Source: a virus
Lineage: Duplodnaviria > Heunggongvirae > Uroviricota > Caudoviricetes
DNA: 35,565 bases
IMG/VR virus record: IMGVR_UViG_2541047908_000011
Location: 1 to 35,565 of that record
Strand: one strand, 5' to 3'
Notes under the pieces: model-generated
What the model was told of the DNA's origin: nothing
Seen by the model: the letters and a program-made list of their open reading frames with translations, nothing else
The model's database searches: none
Shown here: positions 18,393 through 34,532 of the stretch, piece by piece
Layout of the letters: each line of letters opens with the position of its first letter
Position numbering within the stretch: position 1 is the stretch's first letter
Position numbers and translations under genes: made by a program

Positions 18393-18902
18393 TTATTTGC
18401 GTTTATTGACAGGTAATATAGAATTAGCAGCATCTTTCTCTCTCTCTTGGAACGAGTTATGTCTTTTAACCATATCAGGACCAATGAGACTATAAATTAC
18501 TGTCAACAGTTGCCATAAAGTTAAAAAAACCAAAATGGCATATGACGCGCCCCTAAAAATGTCCTTGTGATCTATAAAAAACGGTATCTGTTTTACTAAT
18601 GGCGCAACAACGCCAATAATTAAAACTGATGCTAAAATAGCAGTAGAATGTACAATTGGTGTAAATAACCTTGTAATCCCACTGCCATTAGATTCACTCG
18701 CTGAACTGCCACCTCTAAATGATTTTTTTAATCGTTCAGGATAGATTATCGCAAACCAAGCTCCCACAACTGCAAAGATAATGGATGCTGTAGTTCGCAG
18801 GGCCTCATAAAGAGGCCACTGGGATGAGAAGGGAACATTCTTCCCAAAATAGGCAGAAAAAATCAGAACGACCATAAGAAAAATTCCACCTAAGATTTTC
18901 AT
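18393..18902 (-). CDS. Cargo gene B: 169-aa integral membrane protein (about four TM helices), unknown function
   Basis: AT-rich ORF. Hydrophobic segments at about residues 5-22, 38-57, 85-106 and 120-141. Its ATG directly abuts the stop of cargo gene A (GGA ATG TAG ATG AAA). Confidence 0.7.
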   Translation of the reverse strand: MKILGGIFLMVVLIFSAYFGKNVPFSSQWPLYEALRTTASIIFAVVGAWFAIIYPERLKKSFRGGSSASESNGSGITRLFTPIVHSTAILASVLIIGVVAPLVKQIPFFIDHKDIFRGASYAILVFLTLWQLLTVIYSLIGPDMVKRHNSFQEREKDAANSILPVNKRK

Positions 18903-19943
18903 CTACATTCCCGCCTCGCGTAATATGAGCTCCCTTTTGCCTACAAGTTCAGAAAGAAGAGATTCCGAGGACACAAACTCGGCGTCCTGTCGCTCCAAAT
19001 TCAAGTGGAATTTGGTTCGTGCTAATGAACGACTGAGCCAATATGTCGTTGGATCTCCTTTAAATACAAAACCATAATCACAAGAGTTTGTATCGCTATG
19101 TTTATTCCAATCATCAATCATCCCCTCGATGTCATCAATATCAACATTCGGAGAAAGTTCATATCTAATTTTTGTTGAGGTATTTGCAGTTTGTGGATGG
19201 CTAATATTCATATTAATCAATAGTTTTTGCCACAGGCTAAACTCGTCAGGTTTTGACACATCAAGTTCAACAACCTTTTCAATTTTAGAAACAATATTAG
19301 CATTCTGCCTAATAACTTCATGTTTACCAGGATTTCTTACTAAACCAGCTACGAACTGTGGATAGTGTTTTTTCTTTGGCAGCACATCATCTGTTGGGTT
19401 AATTTTATAGCCCTTGATAACCACCTCATGCGTGCCATCTTCCTTCTCCACACTTTCCGCCACAACGTGGCTTGATGACTGTTTTAAAAAATGATAGAGA
19501 TAGCATTGCATCGCCTTCTGTCCCGTCAAAGCATGGTTAAACTTGATGCTAGCCACTAAATCCATGGATGGAATAAACCAAAAGTAAGTAGCAAAACCAG
19601 GAATACTTCCCTTCTGGATTGAATTAAGTATTACTGTTGGGTCCGTACCAAATTCTGTATCTTCCTGAACCGATGGAACACTTTGATCTGTAGAAGGAAC
19701 CTCATTCCAGAGCAACAAAACCACATTGTCACCAGCACGTTTCATATCCAGAAGATAAGCAGGTAAAACCTCATCATTTGCTTCATATGTCTTTGTCTGT
19801 TTGAGTTTTTTCCCTTCTGCCCATAAAGCAAGATCTGTGAGCAACTCGTCACAACCACCAAATGCAGGGCTTACAACACCGTAACGGTAGTAACCACATT
19901 TTTGAATTTTATAGAACGTAATCGTTACAGTTTCAGAAACCAT
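18903..19943 (-). CDS. Cargo gene A: 346-aa soluble protein of unknown function, translationally coupled to the membrane partner
   Basis: Long AT-rich ORF with no TM segments, no Walker motif and no phage-structural signature that I can recognise. Occupies the Q-to-holin interval. Confidence 0.7.
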   Translation of the reverse strand: MVSETVTITFYKIQKCGYYRYGVVSPAFGGCDELLTDLALWAEGKKLKQTKTYEANDEVLPAYLLDMKRAGDNVVLLLWNEVPSTDQSVPSVQEDTEFGTDPTVILNSIQKGSIPGFATYFWFIPSMDLVASIKFNHALTGQKAMQCYLYHFLKQSSSHVVAESVEKEDGTHEVVIKGYKINPTDDVLPKKKHYPQFVAGLVRNPGKHEVIRQNANIVSKIEKVVELDVSKPDEFSLWQKLLINMNISHPQTANTSTKIRYELSPNVDIDDIEGMIDDWNKHSDTNSCDYGFVFKGDPTTYWLSRSLARTKFHLNLERQDAEFVSSESLLSELVGKRELILREAGM

Positions 19944-22470: not shown

Positions 22471-22743
22471 TTACCTCCAGATCCGTTGCTGGTATGTGCG
22501 GGATGGGCGCGGTGGGCGTTCGGAATAAGGGAGCCTGACATAGATTATCCAGTGACGATAATCGAGGCTGAGGGCTTTCTTAATCTCGTATCCGCGTCTG
22601 CGGTAGTTATGAATTAGCCATTCGGCCTGTTCTTCAGTACATGGTGGGTGTTGGTACCAGTCGGTTTTAAATGCGTGTGAACGCCGCTCATGCCGGATGG
22701 CAAGGTCGGTATCAGAATTGTGAAATTTGGTTTTGTGCGCCAT
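22471..22743 (-). CDS. Hypothetical nin-region protein
   Basis: 90-aa basic ORF on the coding strand between hok and the DUF968 gene. Confidence 0.35.
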   Translation of the reverse strand: MAHKTKFHNSDTDLAIRHERRSHAFKTDWYQHPPCTEEQAEWLIHNYRRRGYEIKKALSLDYRHWIIYVRLPYSERPPRPSRTYQQRIWR

Positions 22744-22811
22744 CTGTTTTCTCTGCTGGCGCAGCAGGTGTCAGGTGTTCAGGCTGACGTGCGAATTGTA
22801 AACCAGAATGC

Positions 22812-22842
22812 CAGGAAAAAACAAAACCCGCCGAAGCGGGTT
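22812..22842 (-). terminator. Rho-independent terminator downstream of hok
   Basis: Minus strand AACCCGCTTCGGCGGGTT followed by TTTGTTTTTT. Coordinates approximate. Confidence 0.55.
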
Positions 22843-22910
22843 AAGTGCGGGTGCGTTGAGGATGCCTGACTCATCAGAGGTGGCGAGGGATTTCCCCCTC
22901 GCCTGGTCTC

Positions 22911-23066
22911 TTACTCCTCAGGTTCGTAAGCTGTGAAGACAGCGACCTCCGTCTGGCCGGTTCGGATTCGTACCTCGCAGAGGTCTTTCCTCGTTACCAG
23001 TGCCGTCACTATGACGGTTAAACAGATGACGATCAGGGCGATTAACATCGCCTTTTGCTGCTTCAT
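22911..23066 (-). CDS. hokD: Hok/Gef-family type I toxin (HokD/RelF-like)
   Basis: 51-aa product MKQQKAMLIALIVICLTVIVTALVTRKDLCEVRIRTGQTEVAVFTAYEPEE: single TM helix plus conserved RK.LCE..R.....EVAAF-type tail. The in-frame upstream extension to 23123 may correspond to mok. Confidence 0.8.
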   Translation of the reverse strand: MKQQKAMLIALIVICLTVIVTALVTRKDLCEVRIRTGQTEVAVFTAYEPEE

Positions 23067-23303
23067 AGCCTGCTTCTCCTTGCCTTTCGGCGCGTAAGAG
23101 GCTAACCTAGATTTGCCGTTCATAGATTGAGCCTCAGATTAATGTTAAGCGTCTTGCCGGACGCGTAATGTTAACTGGGGCTTTTCTCTATCTGCCTTTC
23201 AGTGTTCATGCCTGAGACAGATAGCCTCAAGCACCCGCAGCCATTCTACTTAACTCACGTCACCTCGCCAATATGAAATCAATCAGAAAGGTGATCCATA
23301 AAA

Positions 23304-23990
23304 TCACTCCTTCTCTTCTTTTCCGTAGTGGAGTTGGCCAATTTTGATAAGAGGGCGTCCCTGAGATTTGCGGTGTAGATTGGTATCGCGCAGAGAATAC
23401 ACACAGCCACAATATTCCTGCTGATAGAATTTTTCGCGCTTGCTGATTTCAATCATACGGGACGAGCCGCCCTGCTTGCGCCAGTTATAATCCCAGTACA
23501 CCATACCCGGATAATGCGCAACAGCTCGCCGCCCACACTCGTTAACCTGCTGCATATTTTTCCAGCGTGAAATGCCCAGTGAACTACTGATCACACTGAA
23601 ACCATTTTCAGCAGCGTACAACGCTGTCCGCTCAAAACGCATGTCAAAACACATGGTACAACGGATCCCCCTCTCAGGCTCCCATTCCATTCCTTTGGCA
23701 CGTTCAAACCAGTTGTCGGTGTCGTAATCAGCATCGATAAACGGCACGCCGTGTTGTTCAGCAAAGCGAATATTTTCATCCTTACGAATTAAATACTCTT
23801 TCTGAGGATGAATGTTCGGGTTGTAGAAAAAGATGGTGTAGTCGATTCCCGAGGCCTGAAGCGCCTCCATCACTTCACCGGAACATGGAGCACAGCAAGA
23901 GTGCAGTAGTAGTTTGTTTGCCCCGTTTGGGAGCTCCAATTTAGGCCGTTTGAAATCAGCAATAGTCATAAATATTTTTATTGGGGTCAT
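23304..23990 (-). CDS. queH: QueH-like epoxyqueuosine reductase homolog (DUF208, Cys-rich)
   Basis: 228-aa ORF with [17 protein letters not shown] and CGC cysteine motifs, consistent with DUF208/QueH as I remember the family. Start ambiguous (23990 or 23969). Confidence 0.55.
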
Positions 23991-24143
23991 GAAAATAGCA
24001 CAGAGTGTAGCATCAGAGCAGGGCTATCGGGAATATATGTCTAAATCTGGTAATATCTGGTTTTGACGCAAAGCGGACAACCACGCTGGCTCTACCCTGC
24101 GCCATGAAAATGTCAATTCACATCTGAACTAATGCTCTTTAAT

Positions 24144-24584
24144 CTAGTAACGTCTAAAATACCTAACATTTCCTTGATAAAATGCCAGTACACGCTGCAT
24201 AGCTTCGCTCTTCCGGCACTCGCGACAGATTATGTTCATACGCCTGTCGTAGCGGCGTATTTCGCCGTCTGGTAACGACCAGATAAGGTCCGGATCAACC
24301 ACTGCAGGTTTCTTCAGCTTTGCCCTTGAGAGCTTTTTACGGGCATTTTGCCAGTCCTTACGCGCCTGTTCAGACGGGAATAACCCGTAACCAGAGTTGT
24401 ATACATCGCCACTGGCAACCAGTTCTCTGGCCAGAACGCTCATCAGATATCTTGTCGCACCTGTCTTGGCTTCCAGTTGCCGTAACGTCTCGCGCCCACT
24501 CCGGCGTACTAGCTCAACAACCTGCCCTTTAATTTTTTCCCGCTCTTCTTGTGTAAATACTTTTGCCATAAGCGCCTCCGGCAA
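24144..24584 (-). CDS. Hypothetical nin-region protein
   Basis: 146-aa basic ORF whose start abuts the stop of the upstream gene. Confidence 0.5.
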   Translation of the reverse strand: MPEALMAKVFTQEEREKIKGQVVELVRRSGRETLRQLEAKTGATRYLMSVLARELVASGDVYNSGYGLFPSEQARKDWQNARKKLSRAKLKKPAVVDPDLIWSLPDGEIRRYDRRMNIICRECRKSEAMQRVLAFYQGNVRYFRRY

Positions 24585-25355
24585 TCACTTTTCCGATACA
24601 ACACGGCGGGAAGAATCAGTAATCTGTCGAACAATATCCCGGTGCTTGTTCAACTCCCGCAGCGCGGCGCAGACTCGCTCCCACTTCTGAACATCACTTT
24701 TCGCCCTGCGCAGCGCCAGGTTTGCCCTGCGAAGGGACGGAAAAATCAGCTCATCTGCTTGCGTTTCGGTAAACGATGGCAACGGCTGCACAATGTCCGC
24801 CACAGTTTCTGTTTTAATTTCTTCCTGTGTTGCGGCTTCCCGGACTGGTAACGCAGCACCTGCTGGCTGAGGAAAGGCCTTACCATCACTTTCCGTTACC
24901 AGCGCGGCTTTCGGCTCTGCTGGTAAATTATCGCCCGGCATGCAGTAACGAAATTTACCGTTCTGATTAACGCGTGCCAGCCGCCCCGTTGCGGTTACCA
25001 CCGCCAGCGTGGAAGCAACCTTGCGAGTACTGACACCGAACTTACCCGCCAGTTCCTCACACGTTTTAGCCCCATCCTGACCGATAAACTCAATCATCAT
25101 GTCTGCGGTAACTTTTTGTTCGACCTCCCCGGTCAGCATATCCTGTGCTTCAGATTTTACTGGCCGCTCTTCGGTTACCCGGGATTCACCTTCGCCAGCC
25201 AGAAACCAGGTGTGACCAGTTTTATCAACGACGCCATTTCTTTTGAGTTCCCACAGCTCGTTAACAGCCTCTTCACGACTGATTCCAAGGCGAGCTGCCA
25301 CCACATGTGAAGAGGCTTTTTTCAGTGCTTTCAGTGCGTCAGATACGGTTTCCAT
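24585..25355 (-). CDS. Phage protein with N-terminal winged-helix-like domain (DUF1627-like)
   Basis: 256-aa ORF downstream of the DnaC-like gene. Assignment is by resemblance and weak. Confidence 0.45.
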   Translation of the reverse strand: METVSDALKALKKASSHVVAARLGISREEAVNELWELKRNGVVDKTGHTWFLAGEGESRVTEERPVKSEAQDMLTGEVEQKVTADMMIEFIGQDGAKTCEELAGKFGVSTRKVASTLAVVTATGRLARVNQNGKFRYCMPGDNLPAEPKAALVTESDGKAFPQPAGAALPVREAATQEEIKTETVADIVQPLPSFTETQADELIFPSLRRANLALRRAKSDVQKWERVCAALRELNKHRDIVRQITDSSRRVVSEK

Positions 25356-27540: not shown

Positions 27541-27796
27541 GAATCAGCTCCGGTGCATTTGATGTGTTAACCTTGAATCCAACAGGTAAACCGTCGGTTG
27601 GGTTAGGATAAATATCAGGGCGAATTTCATGCGGGGTAACTTCCCACTTCATTAGCTGACATAACGGAATTACCTGCTTTGGGGGAACGTCAAAGCTAAA
27701 CCATTGCCAAACAGTCTGTTGAGCGACCCCCATATAACGACCTATTTCAGCTTGAGTGTATTTCTGCCTAATTTTTTCGCGAGTGCTATCTAGCAT
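27524..27796 (-). CDS. Cro-like HTH regulator (YdaS-like)
   Basis: 90-aa ORF with HTH (QAEIGRYMGVAQQTVWQW). GAGGAG RBS. Divergent from the repressor gene. Confidence 0.65.
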   Translation of the reverse strand: MLDSTREKIRQKYTQAEIGRYMGVAQQTVWQWFSFDVPPKQVIPLCQLMKWEVTPHEIRPDIYPNPTDGLPVGFKVNTSNAPELIHENQA

Positions 27797-27830
27797 TTTG
27801 CTCTCCTCTAAAAAACTATAAGCAAAGCCT

Positions 27831-27869
27831 ACAATAAAAAACTGTACACAATCAACAGTTTTTTATTGT
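27831..27869. promoter_or_regulatory. Operator-like perfect palindrome in the divergent repressor/cro-like intergenic region
   Basis: ACAATAAAAAACTGT, 9-nt spacer, ACAGTTTTTTATTGT: perfect 15-bp arms. Confidence 0.55.
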
Positions 27870-27905
27870 GATGCTTTTAACAGTATTTACCTGTAAAATT
27901 GAATA

Positions 27906-28307
27906 ATGATGAACGCCCTAGAAGTATCTATGTACAGAATCAGCAAGCTTCTTCAGGAAACTGGATGGAGCCAGGCTGAGCTTGCCCGTAGAATTGGTGT
28001 GACACAACAAACTGTTCAACAATGGGTCAGCGGTAAGGCTACACCTAAAGCCTCAAGTTTGGATAAACTGGTTGAGGTTACAGGGCATCCATTGCATTGG
28101 TTTTTATTGCCTCCTGAAGAGGGGGAGCAAATTTTCACCCCTGACACGATGAAAATTGGTCCTCGTCAACGCGAACTGCTCCAGGCTTTTAGTGCGTTTC
28201 CAGAGGAAGACCAAGAAAAAATGCTTCAAGAAATCAAAGACAAGAAAAAATCAATGGAAGAAACCATTGCCCGGTGGTTGGCGGCACAAAAAAGCCGCCG
28301 GGCGTGA
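27906..28307 (+). CDS. Prophage repressor-like HTH (XRE-family) regulator, PaaR-like; first gene of a three-gene operon with a ParE-type TA pair
   Basis: 133-aa ORF with HTH (WSQAELARRIGVTQQTVQQWVSG) and no S24 peptidase domain. Divergent from the cro-like gene. Confidence 0.65.
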   Translation: MMNALEVSMYRISKLLQETGWSQAELARRIGVTQQTVQQWVSGKATPKASSLDKLVEVTGHPLHWFLLPPEEGEQIFTPDTMKIGPRQRELLQAFSAFPEEDQEKMLQEIKDKKKSMEETIARWLAAQKSRRA

Positions 28308-28334
28308 CCACAGTACAAGAAGAGGAGTTATGCC

Positions 28335-28526
28335 ATGAGTACAGCCCTTTCTCCGATAGTTTCAGAATTCGAAACTACCGAACAAGAAAACAGTTACAAC
28401 GAATGGTTACGCGCTAAAGTGGCGTCAAGCCTTGCAGACCCTCGTCCCTCAATTCCACATGATGAGGTAATGGCTGAAATGGAGAATCTTATTGCTCAAA
28501 TTGCTGTAACTAACAGGAGCGAGTAA
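28335..28526 (+). CDS. Antitoxin (PaaA-like, 63 aa) of a ParE-family toxin
   Basis: 63-aa acidic ORF overlapping the toxin start by 1 nt (ATGA-type coupling). Confidence 0.6.
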   Translation: MSTALSPIVSEFETTEQENSYNEWLRAKVASSLADPRPSIPHDEVMAEMENLIAQIAVTNRSE

Positions 28527-28813
28527 TGTTACCCATTTTGTGGCTACCATCTGCTCGCGATGATTTGCGTCAGATCGTAGCCTATATTGCTAAGGAAAAT
28601 ATTCCTGCAGCACGCAGACTAAAAATACGGATTGAAACGTCTGTTTTAGCCCTCTCTGAGCATCCATATCTATATCCGCCAAGTGATCGAGTATCCGGTT
28701 TGCGGGAAATTGTGGTTCACCCTAATTATATCGTTTTGTACCGAGTAGCAACTTCAAGCATTGAAATTGCAAATATTGTGCATGCCCGCCGACAATTTCC
28801 CTTCCCTATCTGA
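28526..28813 (+). CDS. parE: RelE/ParE-family type II toxin
   Basis: 95-aa ORF, MLPILWLPSARDDLRQIVAYIA..., typical ParE N-terminus and size. Coupled to the upstream small antitoxin gene. Confidence 0.7.
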   Translation: MLPILWLPSARDDLRQIVAYIAKENIPAARRLKIRIETSVLALSEHPYLYPPSDRVSGLREIVVHPNYIVLYRVATSSIEIANIVHARRQFPFPI

Positions 28814-28830
28814 ACTGAACAATTTTCACA

Positions 28831-28855
28831 CTCCCTCATTCGAGGGAGTTTTTTT
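28831..28855 (+). terminator. Rho-independent terminator after the repressor-TA operon
   Basis: CTCCCTC-ATTC-GAGGGAG followed by TTTTTTT. Confidence 0.7.
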
Positions 28856-28867
28856 GCCCAACACAAC

Positions 28868-28902
28868 AATTAAAAACTGTTGACACAAAACAGTTTTTAA
28901 TT
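28868..28902. promoter_or_regulatory. Second operator-like palindrome (OL-like), same core as 27831-27869
   Basis: CAATTAAAAACTGTT, 7-nt spacer, AACAGTTTTTAATTG: perfect 15-bp arms, sharing the AAAAACTGT...ACAGTTTTT core. A TTGACA hexamer lies in the spacer. Confidence 0.5.
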
Positions 28903-29226
28903 GTAGATTATTTCCACTACCCACCCCGCCCCACAGAACGCAGGGCAATACTTCGAGTTACCCGGCAGTGGTCAGGGGTTAAGTAGCCAGCCCGAGGCGT
29001 AAGAACATGACGGCAGGGTTCAACTTTAATAACTATGCAGCAGGTTTTTGTTCCGCTACCCCGGCGTTAAGGGGAAACAGAGGATTTCTCAGTGGGCGAA
29101 GTCAAACATCAGAATGGAAGGCATCCCGGGATCGGCAAAGAAGCAGCAATGGCGCTTTATATTGACATCAGCGCCATTGCCGGACAGGTAAGAATTATCA
29201 GAGCGGTAACTAAGCGGTATGCGCCT

Positions 29227-33303: not shown

Positions 33304-33507
33304 ATGAGCAGCTTATTTTTAACCGAAGATGAATTGCTAATATTAACGGGCTGCAAATATGCAAGCCACCAGCGAAAATGGTTAATGGAAAACGGGCTTC
33401 CGTTCTATACCAATCGTAGTGGCAAACCGATTGTCAGCCGGGATCTATTTACCTGCAATAAAACTTTACCACCACGCGAGGTAGAGCCGAATTTTGGTGC
33501 GATCTGA
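33304..33507 (+). CDS. Excisionase-like protein
   Basis: 67-aa ORF immediately upstream of int, with its stop overlapping the int start. Confidence 0.6.
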   Translation: MSSLFLTEDELLILTGCKYASHQRKWLMENGLPFYTNRSGKPIVSRDLFTCNKTLPPREVEPNFGAI

Positions 33508-34532
33508 TGGGAAGACGAAGGAAAAATCCTGAACACGAAAAATTACCTCCAAATGTATACCCAAATAAATATAGTTATGTATGGAAACCAACATCCAGAG
33601 AATCTGTCACACTAACCGCCATCAAGGATGGTTTAGCTGCTTTATGGAAAAAGTATGAGGAAACTGTAAATAATCGCGATCGTGCAATGACATTCGGTCG
33701 CTTGTGGGAAAAATTCCTCGCCAGCGCCTATTACAGTGACCTTAGTCCAAGAACACAAAAAGATTATCTGCAACATCAAAAAAAGTTGCTTGCCGTATTC
33801 GGTAAGGTACCAGCGGATTCCATAAAACCAGAACACATCCGTCGATACATGGACAAAAGAGGGGAGCAGAGTAAAACGCAAGCCAACCATGAAAAAAGCA
33901 GTATGTCCCGTGTTTACAGTTGGGGGTATGAGCGAGGGTACGTGAAGGCTAACCCATGTGCAGGTGTAAGTAAATTCAAGGCCAAAAACCGCGAACGATA
34001 TGTAACCGACAAAGAATACCAGGCAGTATTAAGCGTTGCACCTCTTCCTGTTTTTATCGCAATGGAAATTGCCTATCTGTGTGCAGCGAGGGTTTCCGAT
34101 GTGTTATCGCTGAAATGGGAACAGATTGGAAACGACGGGATATTCATCCAGCAAGGGAAAACCGGAAAAAAACAGATAAAAGCATGGAGTCCACGATTAC
34201 AGGCAGCGATCGAAAAAGCAAAACAGTTACCAAAATCTGCCTATGTGATCAGCAATCAATACGGCAACCGATATATGTACAAAGGCTTTAACGAAATGTG
34301 GGTAGATGCAAGAAATCGTGCTGGAAAAATTTCAGGTATTTTAACCGACTTCACCTTTCATGATCTGAAGGCGAAAGGAATTTCAGACTATGAAGGAAGC
34401 AGCCGGGATAAGCAACTTTTCTCTGGTCACAAAACCGAAGGGCAAGTGCTAATCTATGACAGGAAGGTTAAAGTTTCACCAACACTTGATGTCCCGTTAC
34501 CTGAAAATATTCCAAGAAAATATTCCAAGTAA
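33507..34532 (+). CDS. int: Tyrosine integrase (lambda Int family)
   Basis: 341-aa ORF with a C-terminal catalytic region (FHDLKA...GH...LIYDRK) consistent with the R-H-R-Y active site. Adjacent to the tRNA 3' end. Confidence 0.9.
   Translation: MGRRRKNPEHEKLPPNVYPNKYSYVWKPTSRESVTLTAIKDGLAALWKKYEETVNNRDRAMTFGRLWEKFLASAYYSDLSPRTQKDYLQHQKKLLAVFGKVPADSIKPEHIRRYMDKRGEQSKTQANHEKSSMSRVYSWGYERGYVKANPCAGVSKFKAKNRERYVTDKEYQAVLSVAPLPVFIAMEIAYLCAARVSDVLSLKWEQIGNDGIFIQQGKTGKKQIKAWSPRLQAAIEKAKQLPKSAYVISNQYGNRYMYKGFNEMWVDARNRAGKISGILTDFTFHDLKAKGISDYEGSSRDKQLFSGHKTEGQVLIYDRKVKVSPTLDVPLPENIPRKYSK

Follow-up and report, generated by a model that had tools for sequence, protein, structure and literature searches.

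The nin-equivalent region of a lambdoid prophage

The window, that is, the whole stretch of 35,565 nt analysed here, is an E. coli prophage of the lambdoid group whose head genes are of the HK97 type. It is inserted at tRNA-Ser(cga), adjoining mtfA. An unbroken ORF runs on its minus strand from 23990 to 23304 and encodes 228 amino acid (AA) residues when counted from the first ATG. The ORF is intact and, as described in the initial annotation, Cys-rich with the HSCCAPC motif, which is located at residues 30-36 (the numbering of the 228-AA form is used throughout). The gene, referred to as queH below, lies on the early-right strand, with O-like, DnaC-like, DUF1627 and DUF977 genes on its 5′ side and the hok/sok locus (hokD), a 90-AA ORF, DUF968, RusA and the Q antiterminator on its 3′ side, all in the same orientation (Table 1). 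This position, between the replication genes and the hokD/DUF968/RusA/Q block, is the equivalent of the nin region of lambda, in agreement with the placement given initially.

DUF977 adjoins queH in essentially all prophage loci examined, and hok is the usual, if not invariable, right-hand neighbour across prophages. DUF1627 (24585-25355, minus strand) and DUF977 are constant companions of the replication module. Among prophages with identical QueH, the identity of DUF977 ranges from 62% to 99%, a contrast that is biased by the choice of these loci as best QueH matches. The hok/sok locus directly 3′ of queH is complete (22821-23271, minus strand), with a promoter-like TTGGCG-17-TAGAAT at 23271-23243 and a terminator at 22842-22825, the latter overlapped by a sub-threshold isrK-like match.

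Table 1 Features at and around queH, with positions in the window
Feature	Position	Strand	Remarks
DUF977 gene	24144-24584	minus	Pfam DUF977, 1.3e-28; usually to the left of queH; closes the replication-side block
Segment replacing 90 bp in a queH-less prophage	23302-24272	minus	queH module plus an alternative DUF977 3′ end
Mobile queH module	23298-24085	minus	gene plus ~65-115 nt upstream, ~790 bp; extents from blastn against other copies
Extended -10 promoter-like box, TGCTACACT	24004-24012	minus	TGcTACACT (TGn + TACACT); ~43 nt 5′ of ATG 23969
Seven extra codons, MTPIKIF	23970-23990	minus	upstream ATG unconserved
queH coding sequence	23304-23969	minus	221 AA plus stop, conserved start; PGAP, Pfam, PDB, AF2/Foldseek, invariant columns, dN/dS
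hok/sok (hokD/mok) type I toxin-antitoxin	22911-23236	minus	ORF; Rfam sok RF01794, 110.6 bits at 23061-23236; hokD in relatives

The length of 228 AA given initially is correct for the ORF, which is open from its first ATG, but the true product of queH is most likely a protein of 221 AA starting at the second ATG (23969, M8), which is also the start assigned by PGAP to the identical protein WP_000150294.1. When the sequences 5′ of the gene were aligned among prophage, plasmid and chromosomal copies, ATG 23969 proved to be kept in its column, whereas the Enterobacter, Scandinavium, Kluyvera and plasmid copies have no counterpart of ATG 23990. The shorter form is preferred because of this difference in conservation, and because ATG 23990 lies only ~14 nt 3′ of the conserved -10 box. 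The seven extra codons are probably part of the 5′ UTR rather than coding sequence, as judged from the same alignment. No Shine-Dalgarno sequence was found before either ATG.

Family, fold and active-site residues of the prophage QueH

The assignment to the QueH (DUF208) family had been made from the motif, and an HMM search against this family has borne it out. The protein gave a single, full-length Pfam match well over threshold, PF02677 (QueH, DUF208; E=1.1e-65, 221.5 bits against a cut-off of 23.5), covering residues 27-201 and profile positions 1-174 of 175, and by this sequence comparison the HSCCAPC/QueH match lies far above chance. A search of PDB sequences returned the QueH of Thermotoga maritima (7LC5, E=7.8e-22), and the T. 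maritima QueH entries are the only relatives by sequence with a solved structure. An AF2 model based on a 53-sequence alignment (pLDDT 93.9, pTM 0.90) gave the three T. maritima QueH structures 7LC5, 7LC7 and 9DEU as the top PDB matches in Foldseek (target-normalised TM 0.92-0.93, rmsd 1.2 Å). The next family was TtuA (E~1e-4), ten orders of magnitude weaker; TtuA-type tRNA thiolases belong to the same superfamily as QueH. Together with the conserved residues described below, these results make the assignment to the QueH enzyme family over the full length a strong one. No NCBIfam model matches the protein, so the QueH name given by PGAP must derive from another rule, and the corresponding PHROG (phrog_3217, 1.9e-138) is labelled 'unknown function'.

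The prophage protein and T. maritima QueH share the full-length domain and the fold (TM 0.93 and 1.2 Å for the model) at only ~30% identity. Six invariant Cys residues, C32, C33, C111, C114, C194 and C196, are all kept and pair with C9, C10, C87, C90, C169 and C171 of the T. maritima enzyme; their invariance was established in alignments of 53 and 240 sequences, the latter comprising family members of two distant clades. The other invariant residues, H30, N57, P58, N59 (57-59 forming the NPN motif), E65, R69, E106, R110, S141, K144, K172, Y189, Q191, Y193 and S199, are likewise all present. In the work of Li et al. from 2021, the conserved Cys residues (CC...CxxC...CxC) are said to hold a [4Fe-4S] cluster and an adjacent iron, and the enzyme reportedly works without a need for cobalamin.

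Differences from the T. maritima enzyme, which is encoded in the core genome rather than on a prophage, include an N-terminal extension of ~20 residues, a C-terminal extension of ~25 residues and an insertion after the CCAP motif. In addition, C36 stands where T. maritima has Asp13, a residue that has been probed in the structure of a D13N mutant (9DCO). This column holds Cys in 119/119 Enterobacterales-type sequences, while among the 120 Thermotoga-like ones 107 have Asp and 12 have Cys, so that the Asp/Cys difference looks like a family-wide alternation, or a tolerated ligand swap. A UniRef entry named T. maritima QueH (P0121) reads CCAPN at residue 13, as in the D13N structure 9DCO, in place of the CCAPD of 7LC5; the cluster may have come to be represented by the PDB sequence of a mutant.

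Modular mobility, distribution and selection of queH

Comparison with other copies by blastn delimited a segment of little more than the gene itself (Table 1). The homology extends from 24085 to 23298 in phage HannyBb (93%), from 24065 to 23300 in a Salmonella IncF plasmid (90%), and from 24034 to 23297 in a Klebsiella IncF plasmid and the Enterobacter hormaechei chromosome (83%). An empty site was found in a related prophage of E. coli K207-3, in which DUF977 is followed directly by hokD; homology to the window ends at 23301/23302, 2 nt from the queH stop, and restarts at 24272/24273 within the 3′ end of DUF977. In HannyBb (locus L163, 6720-6926) and a Qin-like prophage (locus L168, 5768-5953), a truncated methyltransferase fragment lies between DUF977 and queH, which suggests a hot spot of recombination that was occupied by other cargo in the past.

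The module seems to carry its own promoter, as judged from an extended -10 box, TGCTACACT, upstream of the gene. A box of the form TGCTAC(A/C)(A/C)T is found at -39 to -44 from the ATG in copies from prophages, IncF plasmids and Enterobacteriaceae chromosomes, and it has been kept even in copies whose surrounding upstream sequence has diverged beyond alignment; the predicted transcription start is near 23997. The box surfaced only in the comparative alignment. No -35 element was recognisable near the putative promoter, and a scan for consensus -35/-10 promoters, which together with the terminator scan returned fewer sites than shuffled controls, did not flag it. Rfam scanning of 22500-24400 gave only sok and the sub-threshold isrK, with no B12 or preQ1 riboswitch 5′ of queH, and no usable Fur, FNR, CRP, LexA or (crude) IscR motif was present in the 190 nt upstream, the best matches having 3-8 mismatches. 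Between the end of queH at 23304 and the hok locus no terminator-like site was found; the first to follow on the minus strand is the one after hokD. The description of queH as a moron is therefore retained in part: the insertion is discrete, as evidenced by the empty site, and a promoter of its own is probable in view of the conserved promoter-like box, but a terminator of its own was not found.

The queH gene was detected in 995 of 5426 complete E. coli genomes (~18%), near full length in 985 of them, and the RefSeq/PGAP name is already 'epoxyqueuosine reductase QueH'. The gene of the cobalamin-dependent enzyme, queG, is present in all 5426, and since it is universal, queH is always an addition and never a replacement. 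A QueH-type enzyme had been regarded as unexpected on an E. coli prophage; this is right insofar as the gene is accessory to a universal queG, but with ~18% of genomes and ~300 plasmids it is neither rare nor unannotated. At least two allele classes occur in E. coli, in different prophage backgrounds that include Qin-like cryptic prophages. QueH is encoded on 188 IMG/VR contigs. Among isolated phages a close copy was found in HannyBb only, where it is annotated as hypothetical, and remoter QueH genes (32-52%) occur on uncultured gut 'phage' contigs. The plasmids encoding QueH number 302 (Klebsiella 99, Escherichia 67, others). In the three IncF plasmids opened, from Klebsiella and Salmonella, queH lies beside remnants of fecC/fecE or TonB-family genes and beside IS elements; a link between an iron-dependent QueH and these iron-acquisition islands is possible. 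E. coli 'plasmid' matches at 100% identity (e.g. CP088590) were considered as independent plasmid cargo and rejected, having the same prophage context.

The nearest relatives outside Escherichia and Shigella are the QueH proteins of Enterobacter, Kluyvera and Scandinavium (87-93% AA identity), followed by those of Serratia, Erwinia, Providencia and Proteus (82-87%), and identities to many Enterobacterales lie at 78-93%. Across the chromosomal and IncF-plasmid copies of Enterobacter, Kluyvera, Scandinavium, Klebsiella, Salmonella, Erwinia, Serratia and Providencia, the proteins are of equal length, carry the CCAPC motif and are 78-96% identical to the prophage protein, and the closest of these copies have the upstream TGCTACACT box too. 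Unlike the prophage copy, which is surrounded by phage genes, they have metabolic genes or iron-transport genes and IS elements as neighbours. Among 80 species-representative loci, phage neighbours were found only in E. albertii and S. flexneri. In Enterobacter, Kluyvera and Scandinavium the neighbouring metabolic genes differ by species, which indicates that queH is accessory in these genera too. With dS > 1 against the chromosomal copies, synonymous changes have reached saturation, which points either to a capture that was not recent or to a donor that has not been sampled. The module has been taken up repeatedly into prophages, plasmids and variable chromosomal sites.

Prophage queH is kept under purifying selection, with a dN/dS of ~0.04 between phage copies. 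The window allele differs from those of HannyBb and the Qin-like prophage by 32-35 synonymous and 7 non-synonymous changes (omega 0.043-0.048), and from the Shigella prophage copy by 20 and 3 (omega 0.035); against the plasmid and chromosomal copies omega is 0.02-0.04. The replacements spare every invariant residue, and the ORF is intact in 160/160 loci read. It could be argued that queH is a neutral hitch-hiking passenger with no present function in E. coli, given that universal queG already covers the reaction and that no phenotype is known. We consider this very unlikely, because of the low omega between phage-resident alleles, the intact ORFs, the near full length of 985/995 genome matches and the repeated acquisition by prophages, plasmids and variable chromosomal sites.

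Predicted role in queuosine maturation

In the queuosine (Q) pathway, which is well established for E. coli K-12, TGT inserts preQ1 into tRNA-Asp, -Asn, -His and -Tyr, QueA converts it to epoxyqueuosine (oQ), and QueG or QueH completes the conversion to Q (PMC9508795). The last step in E. coli is carried out by QueG (YjeS) and needs cobalamin (PMC4646009, citing Frey 1988 and Miles 2011), to which QueH is the iron-dependent, cobalamin-independent alternative (PMC9508795). Cobamides must be imported by E. coli (general knowledge, with context in PMC11841063).

It is likely, in our judgement, that the prophage gene is a functional queH on a mobile one-gene module, providing B12-independent oQ reduction on host tRNA alongside QueG. 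This reading is supported by the family, the fold, the conserved metal-ligand residues, purifying selection, modular mobility and the coexistence with queG. The prophage QueH would act as a cobalamin-independent iron-sulfur enzyme, reducing oQ to Q at position 34 of tRNA-Asp, -Asn, -His and -Tyr. The module of promoter and gene would have entered lambdoid prophages from the Enterobacteriaceae gene pool; it is carried by IncF plasmids as well. E. coli has no de novo cobalamin synthesis. Since QueG is useless without cobalamin and the host makes none, prophage QueH would free the completion of Q-tRNA from B12: placed beside chromosomal, cobalamin-dependent QueG in the lysogen, it would allow both the cell and the replicating phage to complete Q-tRNA under a shortage of B12 or of its uptake. 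Lysogens would then probably no longer need imported B12 for the last Q step. From the features above we infer that the enzyme would be active in E. coli, that it would be transcribed in the lysogen from the TGCTACACT box, and that independence from B12 would be of benefit, a gain in fitness being uncertain.

QueG and QueH are predicted to share substrate and product (oQ34-tRNA to Q34-tRNA) and occur in the same cells, but they have unrelated folds and cofactor sets, QueG requiring cobalamin (PMC4646009) and QueH not (PMC9508795). A comparable pair exists in Staphylococcus aureus, where QueG and QueH show different expression profiles ascribed to cofactor availability; the redundancy of these oQ reductases, which differ in cofactor but share a cell, has been interpreted as a hedge on that availability (PMC13443448). 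Both enzymes are chromosomal in S. aureus, whereas in E. coli the second comes from a mobile element and is held by some strains only.

A role confined to the lytic cycle was also considered, in which queH would be transcribed from the early-right (pR-type) operon after induction and would raise Q-tRNA for phage mRNAs, with no part in the lysogen. The gene shares its orientation with Q and the replication genes, has no terminator between it and the genes up- or downstream, and occupies an equivalent position in HannyBb, a phage that forms virions. Q levels also shift during phage infection in another system, Shewanella, where the oQ-to-Q step was reported as the regulated one (bioRxiv 10.64898/2026.03.05.709803), an observation that bears on the main reading as well. 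Nevertheless, the promoter-like box accompanies queH on plasmids and chromosomes, where there is no phage operon, and many defective or cryptic carriers (with frameshifted integrase, or Qin-like) retain an intact gene. The NAU codon usage of the phage is ordinary as well, with NAU shares of 0.60 in late and 0.53 in early genes; as these values are not distinctive, a special dependence of the phage on Q was rejected. An exclusively lytic role is therefore unlikely. The only tRNA gene in the window is the attachment-site tRNA-Ser; a related prophage has tRNA genes for Gly, Thr, Lys and Ile, and a Q-family tRNA is found in neither.

A connection with 7-deazaguanine modification of nucleic acids had been raised initially, in which the protein would serve the modification of phage DNA, or counter a 7-deazaguanine-based defence, in place of acting on tRNA. 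Phages do use preQ0-derived bases in DNA (PMC6884629), QueC-family proteins are found in defence systems, and the prophage has a candidate defence pair elsewhere (PDC-M18-like, see below). The phage 7-deazaguanine clusters (DpdA with FolE, QueD, QueE and QueC; Hutinet et al. 2019) are likewise phage-borne sets of queuosine/archaeosine-pathway genes, but they make preQ0-type bases and insert them into DNA, whereas the window has a lone late-pathway tRNA enzyme and no transglycosylase. The proposed search for further pathway genes was run on the annotation of two near-identical prophages (L001 and L002), and no DpdA/TGT, FolE, QueC, QueD or QueE is annotated there. Of the window, only 1-1681 (tail genes) and 27552-28918 (immunity region) fall outside these two; both gaps are too small for such a gene, and the suggested link is not upheld. 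We know of no epoxy-queuosine-type base in DNA. Furthermore, ordinary QueH proteins encoded on chromosomes are 80-93% identical to that of the prophage, and the 2019 survey of Hutinet et al. found no QueA, QueG or QueH in the viruses analysed (PMC6884629). PADLOC gave no match for QueH, DUF977, DUF1627 or the 90-AA ORF and thus lends no support to a defence role of QueH. Taken together, a function in DNA modification or counter-defence is highly improbable.

The QueH family, its chemistry and its gene name are already known; it is the mobile context that has been under-noticed, and no paper on the QueH of E. coli prophages or of plasmids was found in the searchable literature. Q status affects the decoding of NAU/NAC codons and has been tied to biofilm, virulence, metal and oxidative-stress phenotypes (PMC10570037, PMC9508795). 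If the proposed B12-independent role is correct, differences between strains in Q/oQ and in B12-limitation phenotypes (in the gut, or in btuB mutants) could be traced to a mobile element, and a prophage in about one fifth of sequenced strains, together with Klebsiella and Salmonella plasmids, would remove a dependence on B12. The picture of viruses as carriers of the early (preQ0) steps alone (PMC6884629) would be corrected, and PHROG 3217 would gain a name in place of 'unknown function'.

A broader reading, which we put forward tentatively and hold to be somewhat less probable than its opposite, is that queH is a mobile 'cofactor-independence' cassette of promoter and gene, disseminated in the Enterobacteriaceae by prophages and IncF plasmids, that uncouples host Q maturation from B12 and from its importer BtuB. 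BtuB is a receptor for phages and colicins. Loss of btuB for the sake of resistance would otherwise strand tRNA at epoxyqueuosine, which the queH cassette would avert. Its carriage would then amount to lysogenic conversion of the tRNA modification status, that is, a rewired host epitranscriptome; to our knowledge, no effect of phage on host of this class is on record for the late steps of queuosine synthesis.

Two further features of the prophage were observed away from queH. Between the Q antiterminator and the lysis genes lie two 'hypothetical' genes of 346 and 169 AA (18393-19943, minus strand), which have no Pfam match and correspond to components A (4.6e-197) and B (3.4e-75) of PDC-M18 in PADLOC, making them a candidate anti-phage defence pair; they occupy the late-promoter cargo slot in which Stx phages hold their toxin genes. 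The integrase (33507-34532) is intact in the window, with 341 AA, and frameshifted according to the annotation of L001 (29687-30737) and L002 (32509-33559), which are closely related prophages at the same tRNA-Ser/mtfA site, beside the yersiniabactin island. In view of this difference, the window prophage may still be mobile and its relatives fixed.
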